A stretch of 64,000 nucleotides of DNA from Candidatus Eiseniibacteriota bacterium (GTDB lineage: Bacteria > Eisenbacteria > RBG-16-71-46 > CAZAMP01): contig OZ245046.1 in assembly GCA_965224245.1 (NCBI GenBank), positions 2,944,001-3,008,000 of the forward strand, in the 5' to 3' direction. Positions 10,743-60,572 of the stretch are shown here, piece by piece. Position 1 is the first letter of the stretch, and each line of letters starts with the position of its first letter. The notes below the pieces were generated by a model. The model did no database searches. It had not been told where the DNA came from and worked only from the letters and a program-made list of their open reading frames with translations. Made by a program: the position numbers and the translations under genes.

Positions 10743-10863
10743 GAACCTCCAGGTGCGTCAAAACGCGTTGCGCTGCACCCGCGGGCACCTCCGTCGACTG
10801 CAAGCGCCGGGCAGCTCGCATCCTCTGCTGGTACGCCAGCCTTCCAAGCAGCCGGACGAGGAA

Positions 10864-11304
10864 CTACAAAGCGATCCAGCAAAGCAACGCTATCCAGACC
10901 ACCTGCAACGGCAGCCGAAGAGCCAGTGGCGTTGCCGGCCGTCCCCCGAGGGTTCCACTCGTCCGCGCAGCATGAACGTTCGCGGGAAACAGCGCAACCA
11001 GGAGAAGCGCCAGCCCGAAGGCTGACCAGCGCGAAAGAGGCGGTACCAGCAAGCCGAGTCCGCCGACGATCTCAGCGATGCCCGTCAGCGTGACCAGTAG
11101 CGCCGGATCTGGAAGACCCGGGGGCACCATCCGGATGAGATCCGGTCGCATCCGATTGAAGTGCGCGGTCGCGGTGAACATGAACATGACGGACATGCCC
11201 GCACGCGTGGCCGCCAGGAATCCGTGGCATCTACGCCGAGAACGCCGGCTACTCTCGCCGCGGCGATTGCGATGAGCATGACGAAGAACGGAATGATGAC
11301 CCAC
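10864..11304 (-). CDS. DoxX-like membrane protein
   Basis: TATAHF, TGIAEIVG, FPANV. Confidence 0.8.
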   Translation of the reverse strand: MGHHSVLRHAHRNRRGESSRRSRRRCHGFLAATRAGMSVMFMFTATAHFNRMRPDLIRMVPPGLPDPALLVTLTGIAEIVGGLGLLVPPLSRWSAFGLALLLVALFPANVHAARTSGTLGGRPATPLALRLPLQVVWIALLCWIAL

Positions 11305-11435
11305 CGACCTCTCGCCGGGCTAGCGACCCGCGCTTCGGGTTCGCGGCCTCATCAGCACTCTGCGCAAGACACGCCCCGTGCCACCAACGCATGTCAGTAG
11401 CAAGCGCATGTCAGACGGCGCCCCCCGCTCATGCG

Positions 11436-11987
11436 TCAAGTGGCCCGGTCCATCAGCGGCCGATAGCGCTCCTCGATGACGCGGTGATGGTGGAGCTCGT
11501 GCCCCGCGACATGGAAGGCGAGCCCTCTGGCCGAGGCGGAGTACCCGTTCACCCGACCACGGCGTGTCCACGCGCCCTCGGGCAGGTGCAGCAGCATCGA
11601 GATCGTCGCCGCGCGGACCGCGGCGTACTCGTTCAGAAGACTGGGGACCGTACGGCTCTCGAAGTCCGCCGACGCGACGTAGAGCTTCTCGTCGAAGCCG
11701 GGGAGATCGAGCGTCTCCCCGCGGGCCAGACACAGGATCCGGTACGAGAAGATTCGCTCGTCGTCGATGAGGTGGCCCAGGATCTCCTTGAGCGTCCACT
11801 TCCCGGGGGCGTACGTGGCCCCGCTCTCCACCAGGACCCGCAGGGATTCGAAGAGCTCTCGTGTCCTGGGCTCGAGCTCGACGAGGGCCTCCACCGCATC
11901 GTCGCCCCGGACCGCATCGATGTCCGGCGCCGCGTAGTCCGCGAACTCGCCACTCTCGGCGCGCCCGGTCGGAAGCCGATCCGCCAT
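11436..11987 (-). CDS. DinB family protein
   Basis: YAPGKWTLKEILGHLIDDERIF, GHELHH. Confidence 0.9.
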   Translation of the reverse strand: MADRLPTGRAESGEFADYAAPDIDAVRGDDAVEALVELEPRTRELFESLRVLVESGATYAPGKWTLKEILGHLIDDERIFSYRILCLARGETLDLPGFDEKLYVASADFESRTVPSLLNEYAAVRAATISMLLHLPEGAWTRRGRVNGYSASARGLAFHVAGHELHHHRVIEERYRPLMDRAT

Positions 11988-12055
11988 TGGCCTGACCGCC
12001 TTTCGCTAGCTAGAAGTCCACAGGATCGTGCGATTGCTCATGCCGATCGATCGTC

Positions 12056-12119
12056 GCCTGACGCATGATCAGCATCATCGGCGGCGCACCGCGCCGTCCG
12101 CCGCACGCTGTCGCTGGAC
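12056..12119 (-). repeat. Degenerate attC site, read through by upstream ORF
   Basis: GCCTGAC...GGCGG..CCGCC...GCTGGAC. Confidence 0.55.
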
Positions 12120-12797
12120 GGCGTCTGGCTTGATGATCTCACAAAAGACGCTGGAGGCATCGACTTCGCAGACGTGGGCTTTCACTTCAACCTTCGCACA
12201 GAGCGTGCGAAACATGTCGGGAGTCATTCGTCCCGCCCGGAAGCCATCCTCGCAGACGATGACACCGTGGGTGGACGCCACGCGATCGACGCGCCCGATG
12301 AGACCCTCCGCCGCCTGGACGTCGAACCAGGCCAGCCGATCCGACCAGAACCTATCCGAGTACGAGGACAACAGCACGAGCCCGCCCGGTCGGGTGACCC
12401 GCAGCGCCTCCTCCAGAAGGCATACCTGATCGACTCCGAATGAGCAGATGCCGTTTTGCAAGCAAAGGACCACGTCGAACGAACCGGCCGGGAACCGCAA
12501 GTCGATGGCGTCCATGCACAGGTACTCGCAACGATCATCGCCCCGGGACAGACGGCGCGCGAGCTCGAGGTTTTGCGGGGCGGTGTCAATGCCGACCACA
12601 CGGTGGGCGACACGCGCAAGCCGCTCCATGATCCGCCCATAGCCACATCCGAGCTCGAGGACCTGGTCCGCTGGTCGAAGGCGCCCGAGAGCGTGGAGAA
12701 TCTCTGCTTCGAGGTACTGACATACTCTCTCGGGGGCGACCTCGTAGCAGCGTCGCAACCGCTCCCCCGACAGCTTTTCCGCGTAGTACCTGCCCAC
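12075..12797 (-). CDS. Class I SAM methyltransferase
   Basis: VLELGCGYG. Confidence 0.85.
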   Translation of the reverse strand: MGRYYAEKLSGERLRRCYEVAPERVCQYLEAEILHALGRLRPADQVLELGCGYGRIMERLARVAHRVVGIDTAPQNLELARRLSRGDDRCEYLCMDAIDLRFPAGSFDVVLCLQNGICSFGVDQVCLLEEALRVTRPGGLVLLSSYSDRFWSDRLAWFDVQAAEGLIGRVDRVASTHGVIVCEDGFRAGRMTPDMFRTLCAKVEVKAHVCEVDASSVFCEIIKPDAVQRQRAADGAVRRR

Positions 12798-49912: not shown

Positions 49913-50857
49913 TCAGCGGACCGCGAACTCGTTCGCGTACATCGCCGCGCCGATCGCGCCGGCCTCGGCTCCGAACGCGGACGGCACCACACGCGGCTTC
50001 TGATCGGTGGGCGCCATCGTGTGCGCGTGCACCGCCTCGGCGACCGGCCCGAGCAGCACGTCCCCCGCGCGGGCCACACCCCCACCGATCACCACGCGAT
50101 CGACGCTCAGGAGATTGCAGACCCCGGCGAGCGCGATGCCGAGGATGCGCCCGGTCTCGTCGAACGCCCTCCGCGCGGCCCAGTCGCCGCCGGCGGCGGC
50201 CTCGGCGATGCGCTTGGGGGTCAGCGCGTCGATCTCCGACCCGAGAATGCTCTCGGCGCCGCTCTCGACGAGACGCCGCGCCCGCTCCACGATCCGCGCG
50301 TTGCCCACGAACATCTCGAGACACCCCCGTCCACCGCACGGGCAGCGCGGCCCGTCCACGTCGACGCACATGTGACCGATCTCGCCCGCGGTGCCGAACG
50401 CACCCCCGAAGAGTCGACCGCCGGCCACGATGGCGCCGCCGACGCCGGTGCCGAGCGTGACGTACAGCCCGCACCGCGCGCCGTGCCCGGCGCCCAGCGC
50501 GGCCTCGCCGAACGCGAACGCGTCGGCGTCGTTGATCAGGGTGACCGGCAGGCCGGCGGCCTCGGCCAGGAGATCGCGCAGCGGCACGTCGCGCCAGCTC
50601 GGGAGATTCGGGGAGAGGCCGACGATGCCGCGCTCGACGTCGATGAGCCCGGCGCACCCGACCCCGATCGCGGTGGCCTCGGAGCCGGCGAGCTCGGCGA
50701 CCTCGGCCACGGCGGCGGCCAGCTCGGCGATCAGCCGGTCGACGTCCTCGCCGGAGCCGGTGGGCACGCTACGGGTCAGCCGGACCCCGTCCGCCGGCGC
50801 CATGGCGACCAGCTTCACGTGCGTGCCGCCGACGTCCATGCCGACGACGAGGCTCAC
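49913..50857 (-). CDS. ROK family sugar kinase
   Basis: DVGGT, NDAD, GTGVGG, GEIGH, CPCGGRGCLE. Confidence 0.92.
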   Translation of the reverse strand: MSLVVGMDVGGTHVKLVAMAPADGVRLTRSVPTGSGEDVDRLIAELAAAVAEVAELAGSEATAIGVGCAGLIDVERGIVGLSPNLPSWRDVPLRDLLAEAAGLPVTLINDADAFAFGEAALGAGHGARCGLYVTLGTGVGGAIVAGGRLFGGAFGTAGEIGHMCVDVDGPRCPCGGRGCLEMFVGNARIVERARRLVESGAESILGSEIDALTPKRIAEAAAGGDWAARRAFDETGRILGIALAGVCNLLSVDRVVIGGGVARAGDVLLGPVAEAVHAHTMAPTDQKPRVVPSAFGAEAGAIGAAMYANEFAVR

Positions 50858-52173
50858 GACGCGGCCCCCGACGGCGTCCGGCGAGCGCCCGCGGCGATCG
50901 GCGTCGCCCGCGGGATGATCGGCGCGATGCCCAGATCCGACATCGCCTGCCCGACCGTGAACAGCGATCCCGTCACGAGCACCGGCATCGTCGTCGGCGA
51001 CTCCGCGATCGCCGTCCGGACCGCTCGGCCCGGCACGGGCTCGACGAGACAGCGAAACCCGCGCGCCCGGCAGAGCTCGGCCATGTCCGCGGCCTCGAGA
51101 CGGCGCTCGGGGTGCCCGGGCGTGGTGACCACGAGGAGCTCGGCCCAGCCCGAGAGCACGTCCAGGACGGGATCGTGCGGCTTGTCGGCGAGCATGCCGA
51201 ACACCATCACCGGACGGAGGTCGCCGTACCGGGCCCTCCACAGCCGCTGGATGGCCGCAATGCCCGCCGCGTTGTGCGCGACGTCGAAGATGACGTCGCG
51301 GCCGTCGACCGGGCGCCGGTCGAACCGGCCGGGCCAGCGCGCGGTGGCCAGCCCGATCCGACGGGCCTCGTCGGGTACCTCGAACGCGGTGTCGCCGAGG
51401 CGATCGATCAGCGAGAGAGCCAGCGCGGCGTTCTCGGCCTGGTGGTCGCCGGGGAGCGAGAGCGCGTACCGGCGCCGATCGGGACCGAAGACGAGGCCGG
51501 TGTCGGTGGGCTCGAAGTCCGATCCGCGATCCACGAACGTAAGATCGGCGCCCCGTGCCAGCGCGATCGCCTGCAGGACCGCCCGCGCCGCGGGCTGCGT
51601 GGCGGTGGACACGACCGGCGCCCGCTTGATGATGCCGCCCTTCTCGCGCGCGATGTCCGCGATCGTGTCCCCGAGGATGCGCGTGTGCTCGAGACCCAGC
51701 GAGGCGATGGCCGAGCCGATCGGCTCGATCACGTTGGTGGCGTCGAGGCGCCCCCCGAGTCCGACCTCGAAGACCGCCACGTCGACGCCGGTCCGCGCGA
51801 ACGCCTCGAACGCCAGCATCGTCGTGGCCTCGAAGAACGAGGCGTCGACGCTCTCCAGCGCGGGGCGGATCTCGTCGAGGACGACGGCCAGCATTCCCTC
51901 GTCCGCCGGATCGCCGTTCACGCGAACGCGCTCGGCGAACGACACCAGGTGCGGCGACGTGTTGAGGCCGACGCGAAAGCCCGCCGCCTCGAGCATGGCC
52001 GCCAGGAACGCGGCGGTGGAGCCCTTGCCGTTGGTCCCGGCCACGTGGAGGCTCGCGTAGCGTCGCTCGGGATGGCCGAGCCGGTCGCAGAGCGCCACCA
52101 TGCGCTCGAGGTCGTACTTGATTCCCTGGCGGCGCAGCGACGTGATCGCGCGCTCGAACTCGGTGAGACTCAT
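50854..52173 (-). CDS. folC: Folylpolyglutamate/dihydrofolate synthase
   Basis: GTNGKGS, EVGLGGRLDATN, DVAHN. Confidence 0.95.
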   Translation of the reverse strand: MSLTEFERAITSLRRQGIKYDLERMVALCDRLGHPERRYASLHVAGTNGKGSTAAFLAAMLEAAGFRVGLNTSPHLVSFAERVRVNGDPADEGMLAVVLDEIRPALESVDASFFEATTMLAFEAFARTGVDVAVFEVGLGGRLDATNVIEPIGSAIASLGLEHTRILGDTIADIAREKGGIIKRAPVVSTATQPAARAVLQAIALARGADLTFVDRGSDFEPTDTGLVFGPDRRRYALSLPGDHQAENAALALSLIDRLGDTAFEVPDEARRIGLATARWPGRFDRRPVDGRDVIFDVAHNAAGIAAIQRLWRARYGDLRPVMVFGMLADKPHDPVLDVLSGWAELLVVTTPGHPERRLEAADMAELCRARGFRCLVEPVPGRAVRTAIAESPTTMPVLVTGSLFTVGQAMSDLGIAPIIPRATPIAAGARRTPSGAAS

Positions 52174-53036
52174 CCCTCGACCGTGGCTCCACCGCCCCCG
52201 GTCGTCGGGTTCGCTCGCTCGCGCGCGGACGCGAAGAACCCGAGCAGTCGCGCGAGGTTGTCGTGCATCTGACGCCGGTCGACGATCTGATCCACGTGTC
52301 CGTGCTCCAGGAGGAACTCCGAGCGCTGGAATCCCTCGGGCAGCTCCTGGTTGATCGTCTCGCGGATCACGCGCGGCCCCGCGAAGCCGACGAGCGCCCG
52401 CGGCTCGGCCAGGATCACGTCCCCGAGCGTGGCGTAGCTCGCGGTGACCCCACCGGTGGTCGGGTGCGTCAGGACCGAGATGTACGGAAGGCCTACGTCG
52501 CGCAGACGTCCGAGCATCGCGGAGGTCTTGGCCATCTGCATCAGCGAGAGGACGCCCTCCTGCATCCTGGCACCACCCGACGCCGACACGATGACGATCG
52601 GGCATCGCTCGGTCAGCGCGTCGTCGATGGCCCGCGCGATGCGCTCGCCGACGACCGACCCCATCGATCCGCCCATGAAGCTGAAGTCCATCACGGCCAT
52701 CGCCGTGCGGTGACCGCCGATGGTCGCCATCCCGGTGACCACGGCATCGGTGGCCGGTGACTTTTCGAGGGCCAGCTTCAGCCGTTCGGAGTACTTCTTG
52801 GAGTCCTTGAACTTGAGCGGGTCGGTGGAGCGCAGCTCGTCGTGGCGCGGCTCGAAGGAGTCGGGGTCGGTGAGGATCGCGACGAACTCGGTCGATCCGA
52901 TGCGGAAGTGATGCGCGCAGACCGGACACACCCACGACTGGCGCGCCAGCTCCTTGCGATACTGGATCTCGCCGCACCCGTCGCACTTGACCCAGGCGTC
53001 GCTGGTCGCATCGCTGCCGTTTCGGCTCGGTACCAC
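52170..53036 (-). CDS. accD: Acetyl-CoA carboxylase carboxyltransferase beta
   Basis: Zinc ribbon CDGC/CPVC, GGSMG, SGGARMQEG. Confidence 0.96.
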   Translation of the reverse strand: MVPSRNGSDATSDAWVKCDGCGEIQYRKELARQSWVCPVCAHHFRIGSTEFVAILTDPDSFEPRHDELRSTDPLKFKDSKKYSERLKLALEKSPATDAVVTGMATIGGHRTAMAVMDFSFMGGSMGSVVGERIARAIDDALTERCPIVIVSASGGARMQEGVLSLMQMAKTSAMLGRLRDVGLPYISVLTHPTTGGVTASYATLGDVILAEPRALVGFAGPRVIRETINQELPEGFQRSEFLLEHGHVDQIVDRRQMHDNLARLLGFFASARERANPTTGGGGATVEG

Positions 53037-53158
53037 GCTGACCTCCGCGGTTGCGCGCGCCGCGCGCGCCCCCCATCCCGACGCGGCGCATCTTACTAGA
53101 GCGGCCGCCGCCGTGTGTGGAAATTCCGGCCGCGCGGCCCGCGCGCCGCCGACGAGGC

Positions 53159-53635
53159 TCAGCCGTCTCCCAGCAGGAGATCGAACAGCAGCGCGTCCTC
53201 GCGGGACGGCTCGGTGTAGTAGCCTCGCCGCACCCCGACCTCGACGAATCCGAACGCCCGGTAGAGCGCGACCGCGGCCACGTTGGAGCGTCGCACCTCG
53301 AGCGTGACCCGGCGCTGACCCCGTGTCCGTGCCGTCGAGACGATCGCGGCGACCAGGTGCCGGCCGATTCCCGCCCGGCGACGGGCGTCGGCCACGGCCA
53401 CCTTGGCGAGCTGGGTCTCGTCCAGGACGTGCCAGGCGATGGCGTATCCGGCCACACCATCGGCGTCGGCGGCGACCAGACAGGAGGCCGTGGACGGGGG
53501 CTTCAGCGCCTCGCTGCGGAGTGCGGCCAGGCTCCACGGCGACCTGAACACGGCGGACTCGATGGCCGCCACCTCGGGCAGGTCACTCTCGCGCATCGTG
53601 CGAACCCGGACGCCGGATGCCGGGAACGGCGTCAC
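53159..53635 (-). CDS. rimI: RimI-type N-acetyltransferase
   Basis: LEVRRSNVAAVALY..GF..VGVRRGYY. Confidence 0.88.
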   Translation of the reverse strand: MTPFPASGVRVRTMRESDLPEVAAIESAVFRSPWSLAALRSEALKPPSTASCLVAADADGVAGYAIAWHVLDETQLAKVAVADARRRAGIGRHLVAAIVSTARTRGQRRVTLEVRRSNVAAVALYRAFGFVEVGVRRGYYTEPSREDALLFDLLLGDG

Positions 53636-55185
53636 CGCGGCGTGAGCACGCTGATCGGCAGCACCATCTCCTCCAGCGACACCCCACCGTGCTGGAACGT
53701 GTCGCGGAACTGCCGCTCGTAGCGGTTGAAGTTGTTCGGATAAACGAAGAAGTTGCTGTTCTTGGCCAGGATGTAGTGCTTGGTCGGCGAGTCGTCCGGA
53801 AGCATGTAGTCGCCGGGCCGGCGCACGTGTATCGCTCCCTTGGCGTCCACCTTCAGGTTGGATCCGTACTTGTACCGGAGGTTCGACGAGGCCTCGCGTC
53901 CGGCGTTCACCAGCGACCCCTTGTTCACGAGGATCGCGCCGTGATCGGTCGTGACGACGACCTTCGCGCCGACCGACGCGATCGTGCGCAGGGTGTCGTA
54001 GAGCGCCGAGTGCTCCAGCCAGGTCACCAGCATCTTGCGGAAGGCGGTCTCGTCGGGCGCCAGCTCCTGGAGGATGTCGGACTCCGAGCGCCCGTGCGCC
54101 ATGATGTCGAAGAAGTTGTACACGAGCGCCACGAAGTCCAGCGACCCGAAGGACGCGGCCTGCCGGCGCACCAGCGCGGACTCCTCCTGCGAGAACGCCC
54201 GCTGGTACTTCCACGATCCGAGCGACACGCCCTGCCGCCCCATGTTGGCCTCGAGGAGCTCTCGCTCGTGCCGATTGCGACTGCCCTCGGTGTGCGGATC
54301 CTCCACCCAGTAGTCGGGGTGATGGGCCACGATGTCGCGCGGGAACAGCCCCGCGAAGATCGAGTTGCGGGAGTACGGGGTCGCCGTGGGCAGGATGGAG
54401 TAGTACAGGCGCTCGTCGATCGTGAAGTGCCGCTCGATCAGGGGCCTCATGGCCAGCCAGTGATCGAGCCGCATGCAATCGATCAGGACGAACACCACGC
54501 GCTCGCCGTCTCGCAGCATGGGGAACACGACCTCGCTCATCAGGTCGGGACTCATCAGCGGACGCTCGTGCGACTGCACCCAGCCCGCGTAGTGCTCCTC
54601 GACGTAGCGGCAGAACAGGTCGTTGGCCTCGCGCTTCTGATCGAGGTGGCTGTCGCGCAGACCGGCGTCGGCGATGCGTGTCATCTCCAGATCCCAGGCG
54701 GCCAGGCGGGCGCCGATGGTGAGCCACGCCTCGGGCGTGTGCGCGTCCGCGATCGCGGACGAGACGTCGGCCAGGTGCCGCACGAAGTCGCGCGTGAGCG
54801 TGTCGCGCCGGATCCCCTCGCCCTCGAAGATGCGCTTGAGCGCCAGCAGGATCTGGCTGGGATTGACCGGCTTGATCAGGTAGTCGCGGATCTGCTGCCC
54901 GATCGCCTCGTCCATGATCTGCTCTTCCTCGCTCTTGGTGATCATGATGACGGGCAGCGTGGGGTTGGACTCCTTGATGACCGAGAGCGTCTCCAGCCCG
55001 TCCTTGCCGGGCATCATCTCGTCCAGGAGCACCGCATCGAATTCCTGAGCCTCGACGGACGAGATCGCGTCGTCGCCGTTGGAGACCGGCGTGACCTCGT
55101 AGCCCTTGCCCTCCAGGAACAGGATGTGGGGCCGGAGGAGATCGATCTCGTCGTCGGCCCAGAGGATCTTTTTTACAGGTTTCAT
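53632..55185 (-). CDS. PorX-like response regulator with PglZ domain
   Basis: WADDEID, LLDEMMPG, LPTATPYSRN, TDHG, FQHGGVS. Confidence 0.9.
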   Translation of the reverse strand: MKPVKKILWADDEIDLLRPHILFLEGKGYEVTPVSNGDDAISSVEAQEFDAVLLDEMMPGKDGLETLSVIKESNPTLPVIMITKSEEEQIMDEAIGQQIRDYLIKPVNPSQILLALKRIFEGEGIRRDTLTRDFVRHLADVSSAIADAHTPEAWLTIGARLAAWDLEMTRIADAGLRDSHLDQKREANDLFCRYVEEHYAGWVQSHERPLMSPDLMSEVVFPMLRDGERVVFVLIDCMRLDHWLAMRPLIERHFTIDERLYYSILPTATPYSRNSIFAGLFPRDIVAHHPDYWVEDPHTEGSRNRHERELLEANMGRQGVSLGSWKYQRAFSQEESALVRRQAASFGSLDFVALVYNFFDIMAHGRSESDILQELAPDETAFRKMLVTWLEHSALYDTLRTIASVGAKVVVTTDHGAILVNKGSLVNAGREASSNLRYKYGSNLKVDAKGAIHVRRPGDYMLPDDSPTKHYILAKNSNFFVYPNNFNRYERQFRDTFQHGGVSLEEMVLPISVLTPR

Positions 55186-55415: not shown

Positions 55416-56219
55416 GTGTTTCGTACGTGGGCAACCGTGAGCGTGATCTCCGTCGTGGCCTGGACCACGACGACCGAGGCCGACGCCGCCACCACCTGGC
55501 GCGAGTTCGGCGGACTCAAGATCATCGTCGGCGACAGCGTCGACACCGAGGGGCAGGTCTACGTGGCGCGTGGGCACTTCCTCGCGGCACCCAGCGGGTC
55601 GGAGCACGTCTACGTCCTCGCGCCCAAGGAGTACACGGTCCACCGTGTCCCGCGCTCCGCCCTCGAGACCACCGAGAAGGGCCCCGCACTGGACATCGAC
55701 GACAAGAGCGGGTTCACCTCGGTCGGCGTGCTCGAGAAGGACGCGGATGCCATGAAGTGGAGCGACGGCGAGCAGCGCTACTCGCTGTCGGCCAAGCCGC
55801 CGCTGATCGGTCGCGTCACGCTCGAGGAGCTCCTCGCTCACACCAAGAAGTACGACTTCGACATCGAGACGTACGAGCCACGCGCGGCAGCACTATCGGC
55901 GCTGGCCGGCGTCGAGACGCCGGTCGACATCGCCGTGGCCTTCGGCACGTGGTGCTCGGTTTGCGCACACTGGTTGCCCCACTTCATCAAGACCGTCCAG
56001 AGTGCGGACAATCCCAACCTGCGCGTGACCTACGTGTCGGTCAACGAGGATCTCGACCAGCCGGCCGATCTGATGAAGACGTACGCATTCGACGGCGTCC
56101 CCATCTTCTCGGTTCGCCGCGACGGCCAGGAGATCGGTCGCGTGACGGGCGAGGACCTCGAGGAGGATCCGGACGCGGTGCTGGAGCAGAGCCTTGCCGA
56201 CATCATCACCGGCAGCTGA
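55416..56219 (+). CDS. Exported thioredoxin-family protein
   Basis: Signal-like start; GTWCSVC; GVP cis-Pro; EIGR. Confidence 0.8.
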   Translation: MFRTWATVSVISVVAWTTTTEADAATTWREFGGLKIIVGDSVDTEGQVYVARGHFLAAPSGSEHVYVLAPKEYTVHRVPRSALETTEKGPALDIDDKSGFTSVGVLEKDADAMKWSDGEQRYSLSAKPPLIGRVTLEELLAHTKKYDFDIETYEPRAAALSALAGVETPVDIAVAFGTWCSVCAHWLPHFIKTVQSADNPNLRVTYVSVNEDLDQPADLMKTYAFDGVPIFSVRRDGQEIGRVTGEDLEEDPDAVLEQSLADIITGS

Positions 56220-56241
56220 CCCGACGAGCACGACGCCGTCG

Positions 56242-57162
56242 ATGACCGGTGTCGCCGTCGTGTGGATCGGGCATCTGGCCCGCCTCGCGCTGGCCCTCGT
56301 GTACCTGGCCGCCGTCGCCACCAAGTCCGTCGACGTCTCGTACTTCGCCGAGCAGATCGCCGAGTACGGTGTCACCCCGGCCGCGTGGGCGGTCTGGCAG
56401 GCGCCGTTGCTGCTGGCGCTGGAGCTCGTCATCGGCGTCGCGCTCGTGGTGAACTTCCGGCCGCGCCTGACGGTTCCGGCGGCCGCCGCGCTGATGCTCG
56501 TCTTCATCGGCGCGATCTCCATCGCCTGGTCCCGGGGCTACACCGGAGGCTGCGGCTGCTTCGGTGGCGCGGTGTACCGGACCCCCGCCGCGACGTTGCT
56601 CGAGGACGTGCTGTTCCTCGGGCTCGCCGGCCTCGCCTACCTCGGGGCCATCCGGCGTGAACGCGGCTCGACGCGGCACGGTGGCCACCGGTGGCAGGCG
56701 GTCGCGGTCCTTCTCGCCGTGGTGCTCGGACTCTCGGCACCGCGAGTGGCGCCGGCCATCGCGCCTCCGGGCTGGGCGACCGCCGGCGTAACCGGGGGAC
56801 GGTTCGATCACGTGGTGGTGGAGGAGGTCGACGCCAGGATCGATCACGGGGATCTGGTGCTTGCTCTTCTCGATCCGGCCGGCGACGAGTCGATCGCGGC
56901 GCTCGGCCCGGTCGGCGATCTCGTCGGCCTGGACGGCGTGCCGCCGGTGGTGGGGGTGTTCCAGGGCACGAACGAGGACATGGTGGGTGTGCTGTTCGAG
57001 CACGCGCCCGCGTTCGATCACATGGGACACGCGTCACGATCACAGCTCCGACGCTTCTACCGCGAGCTTCCGGTCGTGCTCGCGCTTCGCGACGGTGAGA
57101 TTCTCGCCGCCTGGCACGACACGATCCCGTCGGCCGAGGACATCGCGTCCGCGTACCGCTAG
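56242..57162 (+). CDS. MauE/DoxX-family redox membrane protein
   Basis: CGCFG motif, TM segments. Confidence 0.8.
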   Translation: MTGVAVVWIGHLARLALALVYLAAVATKSVDVSYFAEQIAEYGVTPAAWAVWQAPLLLALELVIGVALVVNFRPRLTVPAAAALMLVFIGAISIAWSRGYTGGCGCFGGAVYRTPAATLLEDVLFLGLAGLAYLGAIRRERGSTRHGGHRWQAVAVLLAVVLGLSAPRVAPAIAPPGWATAGVTGGRFDHVVVEEVDARIDHGDLVLALLDPAGDESIAALGPVGDLVGLDGVPPVVGVFQGTNEDMVGVLFEHAPAFDHMGHASRSQLRRFYRELPVVLALRDGEILAAWHDTIPSAEDIASAYR

Positions 57163-57214
57163 CCGCCGCCCGGAGCGCGGATGGCACCCGCTTCGTCGTA
57201 CCCGCCGCCGGATG

Positions 57215-58492
57215 TCACACGGGGAACTGCACCACGAACGTCGTGCCCTCGCCCGGGGCCGACCGCTCCAGGAGGAGCCGGCCGCCGTGGTACTCCTCGA
57301 CGATGCGCCGGCTCAGCGACAGCCCCAACCCCCATCCGCGTCGCTTGGTCGAGTATCCCGGCTCGAACACGCGCCGCTGCTCGGCCGCGGTCATCCCGCG
57401 CCCGTTGTCGGTGATGCGGATGTCGACGGTCTCGGTGTGGGGCTCACGCTTCACCTCGACGTGGATGTGACCGTCCTCGCGGTCGACCGAATCCAGCGCG
57501 TTCTTGAGCAGGTTCTCCATCACCCACTCCATGAGCTCGCGGTTGATGTTGACCGGCGGAACCTCTTCCAGGTGCTCGGTGATCTCGACCGACGACTTCA
57601 TGTGCGGGAGACGGCGCATGAGATAGTGCGTGGCCTCCCCGACCACGGGAACGATGTCCTGTTGCAGGAGTCGCGGCGCCGACCCGACGTTGGAGAACCG
57701 GGCGGCGATCTTCTCCAGCCGTGCCGCGTCGTTGTCCATCTCCGACAGCACGTCGTCGAGGAACGTCCGGTCCAGGGCGACCGCCGCCGGTGACTGCTGC
57801 CCCTCCTCGGCCGACCGGACCTGCTCGCGCAGCACCTCCAGCCAGCCCATCAGCGACGAGATCGGGGTCCCGAGCTGGTGCGCGGTCTCCTTGGCCATGC
57901 CGACCCACACGCTGCGTTGCTCGTTCTCCTTGATCGAGCGGTAGCCGAGCACAGCCAGCAGCATGAAGATCGAGACCATCGAGAGCTCGATCAGCGGGAA
58001 GAACCGGAGCTGCCGGAGCAGCGGCGAGGTGCCGTAGTGCACGTGGCCGAAGTCGTTGAGATCGCCGGGCCGCTGGATCGGAATCGGATCGTTCTGCGCG
58101 TCCAGATCGGCGAGCTTGTCCAGCACGACGCGCAGCGCGCCCGTCTCGGGAGGGTTCTCGGGGTCGAGCGCGGAGATCTCGAAGTCGGTGACCTCGTCCA
58201 TCTCGACCCCGACGTGGCGCCACACGCGCGGCGTGCCGCTGCGATCGGTCAGGATCAACGGGAAGTCGATCTGCGAGATCACGTCCCGGTACGTCTGCTG
58301 GACCTTGGGGTCGGTCTCGCCGCTTCCCGTGGTCGACGCGGTGTTCGCGGCGAACTGCGCGAAGATGAACGAGACCGCCCGCGACTCCTCCTCGAGACGA
58401 CGCACGATGCGATCGGTGACGATCAGGAGTCCGGCGATGAGGACGATCCCGCCGATGAAGAGATAGTTGCGGAGCAGCTGTGACTTCTGCAT
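57215..58492 (-). CDS. Sensor histidine kinase (PorY-like)
   Basis: ETAHQLGTP, ENLLKNA, DNGRG, GWGLGLS. Confidence 0.92.
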   Translation of the reverse strand: MQKSQLLRNYLFIGGIVLIAGLLIVTDRIVRRLEEESRAVSFIFAQFAANTASTTGSGETDPKVQQTYRDVISQIDFPLILTDRSGTPRVWRHVGVEMDEVTDFEISALDPENPPETGALRVVLDKLADLDAQNDPIPIQRPGDLNDFGHVHYGTSPLLRQLRFFPLIELSMVSIFMLLAVLGYRSIKENEQRSVWVGMAKETAHQLGTPISSLMGWLEVLREQVRSAEEGQQSPAAVALDRTFLDDVLSEMDNDAARLEKIAARFSNVGSAPRLLQQDIVPVVGEATHYLMRRLPHMKSSVEITEHLEEVPPVNINRELMEWVMENLLKNALDSVDREDGHIHVEVKREPHTETVDIRITDNGRGMTAAEQRRVFEPGYSTKRRGWGLGLSLSRRIVEEYHGGRLLLERSAPGEGTTFVVQFPV

Positions 58493-58505
58493 GACACCCC
58501 GCGAC

Positions 58506-59372
58506 CTACTGCTCGACGAGCGCGGCCTTTCGCTGAGCCAGAAGCTCTTCCGCGAGCGAGCGGGCCAGCATCAGCGACTCGTCGCGCGGGCCGTCGATCG
58601 CGTGATGGAAGCGGCGTCGCCCGCCGAAGTCGACGACGGTCGCCTCCAGGTGGAGGGTCTCTCCCTGCTGCGTCATCAGCGCGGCGGCCAGCGTGGGACG
58701 TCCCTCTTTGAGCATGCGCACACACAGGCGCTCGGCCTCGACCTCGCGCCGGGCCAGTCGATCGTCGAGCTTGTGGGCCAGCGCCTTCAAGTTGTCGTCT
58801 CCCTCCCGCCCGACCAGCGACAGGGTTCCCTGGCCCGCGACCGGCATCATCAGGTCACTCGGGAGAATCTCGCTGACGCGATCCTGGATGCCCAGCCACT
58901 CGGCGTATGAGGCCGGCATGATGAGCGCGTCGATCTCCTCGTTCTCGAGCACCTCGAGACGATCCCGAACCGCCCCCGAGACGGTGACGACGCGAAGGTC
59001 GGGCCGGTAGAACAGGATCTGTGCGGCCTGGAGCGGGCCGTCGACACCGATGACCGCCCCCGCGCCGAACTCGTCCAGGAGGATCGCGTCGTCGGCCACG
59101 ACGGCCGAGAGCGGCGTGCGGCGCGGCGCGACCGCGAAGAGCGCCACGCCCTCGGGGAGCGTGAGTGGAAGATGGCGCGTCGGCATCACGACGCCGTCGT
59201 GGCTGCCGCGCACCAGTCGATCCAGCAGGACCTCGCTGTGGTCCATGGTGTTCGGGCGACCGAGGACCTCGGTCTCCACGTCGATCGGCGCGATACGCTC
59301 GGCCAGGAACCGCCACTGCTCGATCCCGAGGTCACCGGTGCCGATGCCGAGACGGATTCGGGCTGATGTCAT
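58506..59372 (-). CDS. HemC (porphobilinogen deaminase)-fold protein lacking catalytic residues
   Basis: RPDL, PVAGQG and AER scaffold present; SLKD, SSLRR, RGN and GGC motifs absent. Confidence 0.75.
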   Translation of the reverse strand: MTSARIRLGIGTGDLGIEQWRFLAERIAPIDVETEVLGRPNTMDHSEVLLDRLVRGSHDGVVMPTRHLPLTLPEGVALFAVAPRRTPLSAVVADDAILLDEFGAGAVIGVDGPLQAAQILFYRPDLRVVTVSGAVRDRLEVLENEEIDALIMPASYAEWLGIQDRVSEILPSDLMMPVAGQGTLSLVGREGDDNLKALAHKLDDRLARREVEAERLCVRMLKEGRPTLAAALMTQQGETLHLEATVVDFGGRRRFHHAIDGPRDESLMLARSLAEELLAQRKAALVEQ

Positions 59373-59516
59373 GGATCGAGATGCTCCAGAGCCGCCGGAG
59401 GCGGCGCAGTGGGTGGCCTAAAACTCCGCAAGACTTCGTGTTACCGCGAAGCTAGCACAGCCCTCCGAGAGAGGTCAATTCGCCGCTTCGACGGCGTTGC
59501 GGCGCTCGCCGCCGCG

Positions 59517-60572
59517 CTATCCCGGCGTCGGCCAGCGAGCCATCCGCCGCCCCAGCTCGAGCCCGGCGATCACGAGCACGCACAGCGCGGCCGCGGCGGC
59601 CGGACCGGTCAAGACCAGTCCCGTCACCGCGAGCACGATCCCCACGACCCAGAACGTCACGAACGTCGCGGTGACCGAGCCCTGCCTGGCGAACAGGCGA
59701 TGCGTCGTGTGGTCGCGCCCCCCCTGGGCCGGACTCCGGCCGGACGCGAGGCGCGTGACGACGACGAACGTGATGTCGGCGACCGGAACGAGGACCACCA
59801 CTGCGATCGCGCATGCATCCCAGAGCCCACCGGACAGCGCGATCGCACCCAGAGAGAAGTACCCGACGGCCTGCCCCAGCATCAGGGAGCCGGCGTCTCC
59901 CAGAAAGAGCTTGGCCCTGGACGTGACGTTGTACGGCAGGAATCCGATCGTGCCCAGCGCGAGCGCACCCGCCACGGCCGCGGCGGGATCGCCGGCCCAG
60001 AAGAGAGACAGTCCGGCCAGCGCGATCGCGGCGGTCCCGGGCGAGACGCCGTCGATGTTGTCGAGGAAGTTCACGGCGTTCTGAAACGCCGCGATCCAGA
60101 TCGTGCCGAGCGCGATGACGAGCGGGGCCGGTAGCCGGGATCCGAGCCCCACGGGCGCGCCCGGTGCCCCCGGGCCGCCGCCGGTCTCCAGCCACCCGGT
60201 GCCGGCGACCACGGCACACGCACCCAGTGCGGACGCGATCAGCTGACCGACGAACTTCTGCCGGGGGGAGAGCGGTGTTCGGTCGTCCACGAAGCCGACG
60301 ATGAACGCGACCGCGAGGCCGAGGACGGCCAGCCACGCGGTGACCCCCTGCGTGGCGGCGACCACGGCGGGAAGCGATGCCACGGCGATGGCGACGCCCC
60401 CCATCTTGGGCGTGACGACGCGATGGAAGCGATCGGGACGTGGCCGGTCGACGAGACCGAGCGTCGGGGCGAGGCGTCGGACGAGGGGAGTCAGGACCAG
60501 GGCCAGAGCGAGCGACGACCACACGACGAGCGATCCGAACGGACCGGGAAACGCGCGAGCGGCGTCGCTCAC
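59517..60572 (-). CDS. WecA/MraY-family polyprenyl-phosphate sugar-phosphate transferase
   Basis: GFVDD, NAVNFLDNIDG, FLGDAGS, DHTTHRL. Confidence 0.9.
   Translation of the reverse strand: MSDAARAFPGPFGSLVVWSSLALALVLTPLVRRLAPTLGLVDRPRPDRFHRVVTPKMGGVAIAVASLPAVVAATQGVTAWLAVLGLAVAFIVGFVDDRTPLSPRQKFVGQLIASALGACAVVAGTGWLETGGGPGAPGAPVGLGSRLPAPLVIALGTIWIAAFQNAVNFLDNIDGVSPGTAAIALAGLSLFWAGDPAAAVAGALALGTIGFLPYNVTSRAKLFLGDAGSLMLGQAVGYFSLGAIALSGGLWDACAIAVVVLVPVADITFVVVTRLASGRSPAQGGRDHTTHRLFARQGSVTATFVTFWVVGIVLAVTGLVLTGPAAAAALCVLVIAGLELGRRMARWPTPG

Follow-up and report, generated by a model that had tools for sequence, protein, structure and literature searches.

A putative HemC-derived pseudoenzyme encoded beside a PorY-like sensor kinase in Candidatus Eiseniibacteriota, probably the relic of a hem operon

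What does an intact gene for a HemC-type protein do beside a sensor kinase gene when the encoded protein has lost the residues of the enzyme? The question is raised by a stretch of 64,000 nucleotides (nt) from a Candidatus Eiseniibacteriota bacterium (assembly GCA_965224245.1, contig OZ245046.1, positions 2,944,001 to 3,008,000), called the window throughout. At 58506..59372 on its minus strand the window carries a gene for a protein of 288 amino acids (aa) that is related to hydroxymethylbilane synthase (HMBS, HemC) and is encoded directly before a PorY-like sensor histidine kinase. The initial annotation described a catalytically dead HemC and proposed that it had been repurposed as a ligand sensor or kinase modulator. 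Comparison of the locus with related genomes leads us to regard it as probable, at about 0.7, that the protein belongs to a class-wide set of pseudoenzymes maintained by selection and derived from a hem operon, that it acts as a non-catalytic binding protein which is kept without haem synthesis, and that its gene came to lie beside the kinase gene after the loss of serS.

A HemC scaffold without its catalytic residues

The open reading frame (ORF) of the HemC-like gene starts with ATG and runs without an internal stop codon, in agreement with the intact frame that had been reported for it. The encoded protein was matched by the Pfam family PF01379 (80.6 bits, E 1.5e-22) and by the NCBIfam hemC model TIGR00212 (113.7 bits, E 8.3e-33, model positions 63-292 of 293), the latter at a score below the equivalog cut-off of 164 bits. 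A phmmer search against the PDB returned 17 HMBS chains with E values down to 2.6e-22. The AlphaFold2 model, built from an alignment of 24 relatives, reached a predicted local distance difference test score (pLDDT) of 94.1 and a predicted template modeling score (pTM) of 0.92. Its best Foldseek matches were all HMBS structures, with template modeling (TM) scores of 0.81-0.88 and 22-25% identity over 279-314 aligned columns; the top match was E. coli HMBS 1ah5 (TM 0.88, 25% identity). As judged from the model and these matches, the three-domain HMBS fold is present along the whole protein. The description of a full-length scaffold therefore holds for all three domains but not for the loop before residue 44, of which about 17 alignment columns are deleted; this loop we take to be the active-site lid of HMBS. 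A hydropathy scan found no hydrophobic segment, and the protein is predicted to be soluble and is therefore expected in the cytoplasm.

The motif replacements listed in the initial annotation were each confirmed by alignment with canonical HemCs. Residues 63-69 (59166..59186, minus strand) read M-P-T-R-H-L-P in place of H-S-x-K-D-x-P and place His67 at the position of the catalytic Asp; in the wider context, A-V-H-S-x-K-D-x-P of canonical HemC corresponds to V-V-M63-P-T-R-H67-L-P. On the same strand, G-T-S-S-x-R-R is replaced by G-V-D-G-P-L-Q at residues 109-115 (59028..59048) and R-G-N-V by S-G-A-V at residues 132-135 (58968..58979), while E-G-R stands at residues 223-225 (58698..58706) where canonical proteins have G-G-C, and the cofactor Cys is gone. 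The N-terminal R-x-S has likewise become G11-T-G13. In HMBS the Asp of H-S-x-K-D is presumably catalytic and the Cys of G-G-C presumably carries the dipyrromethane cofactor, and we assume that R-x-S, T-S-S-x-R-R and R-G-N bind the acetate and propionate groups of the pyrroles. The corresponding set in the HemC-like protein consists of G11/G13, V110/G112/L114/Q115 and S132/A134 instead of Arg, Ser and Lys.

Two further searches centered on this gene gave no usable lead. Structural look-alikes in the ESM Atlas, with HemC families excluded, reached best scores of 0.87 in unnamed archaeal clusters, too low to follow. A scan of 56900-59800 yielded neither a sigma-70 promoter nor an intrinsic terminator, and the promoter type of the host may differ from the one scanned for. 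Among public sequencing runs, four of a single study contain this DNA, and no RNA run is listed for it.

The Cys-less family and its slot

In a collection of 5.8 billion proteins, 13 further proteins were found with 51-61% identity to the window's protein, 12 of them full length (285-314 aa) and one a piece of 216 aa. The 13 full-length members that could be aligned, with the window's own protein included, form group A of a family of HemC-type proteins without the cofactor Cys (hereafter Cys-less) and have a mean column identity of 62%. The HemC-like variant matched 32 of 41 related genomes, and reading the motifs of 31 HemC-type ORFs separated 13 without the cofactor Cys from 18 canonical ones. 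In a profile search of 1.84 billion representative sequences, the clusters at 336-388 bits numbered five: four Cys-less ones and one (P0028) that was a canonical HemC of the slot type described below. Three further Cys-less clusters were recognized among the 14 representative sequences that were read; below them came ordinary HemCs. By this search the family is small. Two more HemC-type representatives without the cofactor Cys, P0040 and P0033, lie outside any inspected locus; P0033 includes a stretch that is repeated within the sequence and could be a product of misassembly. A metagenome scan with P0039 yielded contig L088, whereas the scan with P0040 found no contig, and in a scan of species genomes with an alignment of the variant only the contig of family-mate G001 matched.

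The loci around these genes share one order: a GT4 glycosyl-phosphate transferase gene, a slot, serS, the PorY-like kinase gene and porX. Slot neighbors were identified by phmmer with the window's own proteins and the gene names were confirmed by Pfam (seryl-tRNA synthetase, TP_methylase plus HEM4, ALAD and class-III aminotransferase). At the first 12 loci examined around Cys-less genes, the HemC-like gene, serS and the kinase gene followed one another on one strand in every case, with PorX next in 11 and the contig ending at that point in the twelfth. The search was then extended to 201 genomes drawn from the phylum, all labeled as the same class or closer; in this tally, which includes one genome flagged as unpublished (G044) that contributed no locus, a HemC-type match was obtained in 132. 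Seventeen more loci came from this search, 15 with a Cys-less gene directly before serS and the kinase gene and two with a canonical gene. They added group D, in family f18 plus genome G006 of family f6, and group E, in part of family f9. Contig L088 (G+C 59%) holds a further Cys-less group at the same slot position, so that at least six sequence groups of Cys-less genes can be distinguished.

The inspected set comprised 47 genomes and contig L088. The slot is occupied by a Cys-less gene in 28 of the genomes, the window's included, and in L088; it holds a canonical hemC in seven genomes and no HemC-type gene in 11, and in one it is cut by a contig end. Leaving the window aside, serS lies directly after the Cys-less gene at 28 of 28 loci, and the kinase gene follows serS at 27, the contig of the remaining one ending inside serS. 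PorX was seen at 22 of these 28 loci. Five others end before it could appear, either with the contig or with the fetched stretch, and one locus (L076) has no PorX within about 6 kb. On L088 a 500-aa protein with HDOD and GGDEF (diguanylate cyclase) domains is encoded at 10768-12267 between the kinase gene and porX; this neighbor may be relevant given the PglZ phosphatase-type domain of PorX.

Against this background the arrangement in the window, where the stop codon TAG is followed by 13 nt (58493..58505, minus strand) and the ATG of the kinase gene, was confirmed exactly as first reported, and it is the only case seen of a HemC-like gene touching the kinase gene. The abutment is not the conserved state, however, since serS lies between the two genes at all 28 other loci. 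The window's genome (G000; 6.94 Mb, 27 contigs, 97% complete) has a single serS match, a 475-aa open frame at C1:5728671-5730062 (locus L087), 2.7 Mb away and with only 38% identity to the serS in the slot of G001, the nearest relative. It looks as if the native slot serS was replaced by this distant gene and then lost, and it is this loss that placed the HemC-like gene 13 nt from the kinase gene. The abutment is thus a local accident. A second genome without serS in the string was noted at locus L056 (G020:C10:240500-255000), where GT4, kinase and porX genes stand in a row and no HemC-type gene is present.

Where, then, did the Cys-less genes come from? In the window itself no hem neighbors had been noticed, and accordingly no homologue of hemB, hemL, hemD or serS was found among the six-frame ORFs of at least 100 aa at E <= 1e-5. 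The canonical gene that the initial annotation suggested looking for is present elsewhere in the same genome: a second HemC-type match (TIGR00212, 284.2 bits, C1:3735849-3736703) belongs to a 552-aa hemC-hemD fusion that has all canonical motifs and is flanked by hemA-like and hemB-like ORFs, both named by reading their translations. In other genomes canonical genes occupy the slot itself. The seven genomes with a slot-canonical hemC come from five families, and in all seven the next genes are hemD, either free-standing or as a methylase fusion, and hemB; in five of them there is also a detected hemL, and serS, the kinase gene and PorX come after these. A GT4 homologue upstream was detected in three of the seven. 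Because the slot of the variant elsewhere holds a real hemC together with hemD and hemB, the variant is best understood as the relic of an ancestral hem operon. Its linkage to the kinase gene is then inherited and shared with serS, so that gene order alone is no argument for a functional tie.

A maximum-likelihood tree of 65 HemC-type proteins is consistent with this origin, although it is a quick tree with long branches and its details are provisional. In the tree a clade of 25 rows (SH-like approximate likelihood ratio test, SH-aLRT, 99) contains 24 of the 25 non-slot canonical HemCs, the hemCD of the window's genome among them, and one slot copy, that of G010; all other slot HemCs, canonical and Cys-less, fall outside it. 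Groups A-D lie in a set of 28 rows with the slot-canonical genes of G002 and G003 (SH-aLRT 95), and group E is placed next to those of family f16 (SH-aLRT 87). On the free tree two changes to the Cys-less state are required; a tree constrained to keep the 33 Cys-less rows together is 11.7 log-likelihood units worse and is not rejected (approximately unbiased test, p 0.238). The degeneration would accordingly have happened once or twice. Most simply, the class would descend from an ancestor with hemC-hemD-hemB-(hemL)-serS-kinase-porX, and the Cys-less genes would be the hemC of this operon, which stayed in place while its other hem genes were lost or gave way to others.

Residue losses in five degenerate groups (A-E) were tabulated for positions at which at least 85% of 32 canonical HemCs agree. 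The catalytic Asp is present in 100% of the canonical rows and the cofactor Cys in 97%, and the Cys is the consensus residue in none of the five groups. Lost in all five along with it are the Gly before the Cys, the Asn of R-G-N, the N-terminal Ser and one Thr. Groups B and D retain Lys-Asp and Arg-Arg, groups C and E retain the Asp, and group A retains practically none of these residues; within group A the catalytic Asp position is taken by H, Y, F or Q. All groups share an unchanged G-Q-G motif and several unchanged structural residues. A dozen residues, including T86, I98, D100, E101, Y122, A154, E158 and Q163, are common to at least four of the five groups and rare in HemCs outside the slot. 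In the slot-canonical genes, too, most of these residues predominate at their positions, which fits a lineage-specific surface older than the loss of catalysis.

Selection, haem synthesis and function

The ratio of nonsynonymous to synonymous substitution rates (dN/dS) was calculated by the Nei-Gojobori method for eight genome pairs, seven from within a genus and one, G118/G120, from two genera. Values for the Cys-less gene were 0.079, 0.161, 0.393, 0.290, 0.102, 0.188, 0.175 and 0.267. In the same pairs serS gave 0.098-0.228, porX 0.113-0.299 and the kinase gene 0.111-0.333, and in two pairs the dead HemC protein is at least as conserved as serS. These estimates show that purifying selection acts on the Cys-less gene with a strength similar to that seen for serS and porX. 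The relatives are intact, selected and linked to the kinase gene and PorX, which is to say neither decaying nor unlinked, outcomes that had been named beforehand as contradicting a repurposed protein. With a homologous fold, lost catalytic and cofactor residues, a known active homologue and purifying selection, the HemC-like protein is, on sequence grounds, a pseudoenzyme in the usual sense, as had been proposed. It has the fold and the descent of HemC, yet every defining feature of the enzyme that was tested failed, and for this reason it is not classed as hemC.

Retention of the dead copy appears to be independent of haem synthesis. With the Pfam model PF00490, which matches 11 of 14 control genomes, hemB was found in one of five f11 genomes, in none of five f18 genomes and in none of five f9 genomes with group E. 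The four f11 genomes without a match (G011, G018, G025 and G031) also gave no canonical hemC or hemE and carry the Cys-less gene only, while the fifth has canonical hemC, hemB and hemE. The f18 genomes (G111, G100, G089, G069 and G082) and the f9 genomes (G055, G118, G043, G120 and G178) have a single HemC-type match each. An absence of hemB repeated in 14 of 14 genomes would be hard to ascribe to assembly gaps, and large parts of the class may be haem auxotrophs. Since the dead HemC is kept where no hemB is found, its present role would depend neither on HMBS catalysis nor on endogenous tetrapyrrole synthesis, endogenous porphobilinogen included.

The dead HemC has therefore probably taken on a new, non-enzymatic job, as far as can be judged from the sequences. 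We infer that it works by binding, without catalysis, and is produced along with SerS, the kinase and PorX. Binding could take place through the remodeled two-lobe cleft or through the residues conserved only in the slot lineage, and direct action on the kinase would be one possibility among several. A co-fold of two copies of kinase residues 186-425 with the HemC-like protein scored 0.00; its controls were not run and the result is used neither way.

Several observations weigh against a class-wide, selected binding protein and keep its probability from being higher. The kinase-PorX pair occurs in 11 inspected genomes whose slot has no HemC-type gene, and 69 of the 201 sampled genomes gave no HemC-type match at all, so that the role of the relic would be dispensable in many lineages. 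The old cleft residues differ from group to group, and no common remodeled or ligand site can be named there; the family may thus lack a single function. For the pair of the window and G001 (dN/dS 0.290) dS is saturated at 1.31, and the case for selection on group A rests mainly on its 13 intact proteins of similar length. Finally, the 14 genomes without a hemB match are drafts of 88-98% completeness, in which absence is not proven.

Other explanations have to account for the same observations. That the gene is a decaying pseudogene or a chance ORF is scarcely credible. Long spurious ORFs are common in DNA of 66-75% G+C such as the window, but the hidden Markov model match at E 8.3e-33 and the confident fold speak against chance, and decay is refuted by the 13 intact group A proteins together with dN/dS of 0.08-0.39 in eight pairs. 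That the protein is a prozyme, a dead paralogue controlling the cell's active HemC by binding to it, is very improbable. The window's genome does carry both copies, and prozymes of this kind have been described for trypanosome S-adenosylmethionine decarboxylase (AdoMetDC) and deoxyhypusine synthase, among other enzymes. Four of the five f11 genomes with the dead copy, however, have no canonical hemC that could be found, and the tested f18 and group E genomes have one HemC-type match and no hemB; persistence of the dead copy without an active one rules out a helper of active HemC, and the prozyme was rejected on that account. Continued enzymatic activity, through altered chemistry or a cofactor held non-covalently, is also quite improbable. 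Strong purifying selection, the invariant G-Q-G motif and structural residues, and the TIGR00212 scores of group C (L065-L069, family f11; 164-175 bits, at or just over the cut-off) would suit an enzyme. The cofactor Cys is missing in every member, however, and the catalytic Asp position and its neighbors vary within group A (H/Y/F/Q) and among the groups, which is unlike a new active site.

Two alternatives give the dead HemC a ligand of a definite kind or a definite partner. A carrier, buffer or chaperone for haem or another porphyrin, independent of PorXY and kept for the handling of imported haem, would make use of an HMBS fold built to enclose a linear tetrapyrrole; the gene is kept in the 14 genomes without a hemB match, and groups B, D and E retain parts of the Lys-Asp and Arg-Arg motifs. 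Nevertheless this role seems unlikely. Group A, to which the window's protein belongs, has lost the lid and retains hardly any of the residues that bind carboxylates; the window's genome has its own route to haem precursors; and the groups have no residue in common that might act as an axial ligand. The proposal closest to that of the initial annotation is a cytoplasmic protein that binds to PorX or the PorY-like kinase and tunes its phosphorylation, as a modulator or as the sensor of a ligand, perhaps haem or another tetrapyrrole; it is possible but doubtful. The gene lies on the same strand as, and close to, the serS-kinase-porX string at 28 of 28 other loci, with spacers to serS of just a few nt in group B. 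As the cytoplasmic part of the kinase has only the His box and the ATPase domain, any signal from the cytoplasm would have to reach it through an accessory protein. Genomes without a hemB match, which would depend on haem from outside, keep the relic. Genes dependent on PorX/PorY in Porphyromonas gingivalis respond to hemin in a dose-dependent manner, and hemin binding by PorY is described there as not known (PMC8050853). On the other side, the gene order is inherited from the hem operon and includes the housekeeping gene serS, so that linkage weighs little; the kinase has the same length and similar scores in genomes with and without the relic; and group A has lost the positive cleft residues that would hold tetrapyrrole carboxylates. 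The one ligand described for PorY, the C-terminal domain of PorA, acts in the periplasm (PMC12152298).

A bolder version of the same proposal is improbable in our estimation. In it the dead HemC, kept from the hem operon in just those lineages that came to need haem from outside, would be a cytoplasmic receptor for haem or porphyrin, pass the haem status on to PorY-PorX and so influence type IX secretion. If true, it would fill a gap in the account of how PorXY of P. gingivalis responds to hemin and be the first signaling role described for the HMBS fold. The selected pseudoenzyme of hem-operon origin has consequences of its own. Five of the 14 close relatives of the HemC-like protein are named 'hydroxymethylbilane synthase' in their source databases, and because group C stands at or over the TIGR00212 cut-off, automatic annotation calls Cys-less proteins by this name; reconstructions of the haem pathway would then wrongly score hemC as present where no hemB is found. 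One slot that holds a working enzyme in some families and its selected dead descendant in others also makes a clean case of pseudoenzyme evolution, in which the age and order of the residue losses would be traceable, given that degeneration happened once or twice. Lastly, the gene is co-located with PorY/PorX and is an obvious candidate to test as a cytoplasmic input to these regulators of type IX secretion.

Neighboring genes and comparison with known systems

The kinase gene (57215..58492, minus strand) encodes a protein of 425 aa with Pfam HisKA and HATPase_c domains. Hydrophobic segments at residues 5-31 and 162-185 enclose an outside domain of about 130 aa; the His box is at H205, and the motif ETAHQLGTP is kept in 17 of 17 aligned orthologues. 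PorX (53632..55185, minus strand), with Response_reg and PglZ domains, scored 648.4 bits against NF052313 (cut-off 300) and was present in all 41 related genomes; the kinase gene adjoins or neighbors porX in the relatives inspected. The regulator first described as PorX-like is thus a PorX equivalog. The kinase is the candidate cognate partner and has the name PorY-like from gene context, no PorY-specific model being among the best 25 of 76 NCBIfam matches. Between the two genes, on the opposite strand, lie a thioredoxin-like gene (55416-56219) and a MauE/DoxX membrane protein gene (56194-57162), both identified by Pfam. The same pair is present in family-mate G001 (L033 6109-7849) and was not detected between kinase and porX at the other inspected loci. 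The upstream border of the slot is formed by the GT4 gene of the WecA/MraY family (59517..60572, minus strand; PF00953 93.5 bits, TIGR02380 85 bits, under the cut-off), 144 nt from the start of the HemC-like gene, and a homologue is found upstream of the slot in many relatives. At 49913-53537, where G+C is 70-75%, several very long overlapping ORFs of up to 868 aa were noted on both strands. With such high G+C and such overlapping ORFs, length alone is no proof of a gene in the window.

The open-access literature in PubMed Central and bioRxiv returned no description of a dead bacterial HemC. Among the matches listed there, none combined hydroxymethylbilane synthase with PorX/PorY, and none of those for porphobilinogen deaminase with a paralog or pseudoenzyme contained the enzyme term; 'HemC-like' and similar names occurred in animal gene lists only.

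In P. gingivalis, porX and porY are unlinked orphan genes. The window, by comparison, combines the PorX equivalog with a membrane sensor kinase in one string of genes. Its genome encodes at least 150 type IX secretion C-terminal sorting domains (TIGR04183) above the cut-off, 150 of 415 candidates having been scored. The GldM model TIGR03517 found no match in this genome, nor in any of the control genomes.

Prozymes such as those of trypanosome AdoMetDC and deoxyhypusine synthase resemble the dead HemC in being enzyme folds without catalytic residues that are kept by selection. They differ in that a prozyme acts on its active paralogue, whereas the dead HemC persists without an active copy. The type II periplasmic-binding-protein or Venus-flytrap sensors (BvgS VFT2, MetQ) share the two-lobe architecture of HemC domains 1-2 and are the next fold matches after HMBS, weak ones at TM 0.37-0.50; in contrast to them, the HemC-like protein is predicted to be cytoplasmic, stands alone and has a third domain.

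The closest known system remains HMBS itself, as represented by E. coli 1pda and 1ah5 and B. megaterium 4mlq. The HemC-like protein has the same three-domain fold and recognizable sequence homology and, by position and tree, would descend from the class's own hemC. It departs from HMBS in lacking the cofactor Cys, the catalytic Asp, S-x-K-D, T-S-S-x-R-R, R-G-N, the N-terminal Arg and Ser and the lid loop, and in being encoded by a gene that no longer stands beside hem genes and is kept in genomes without a hemB match.

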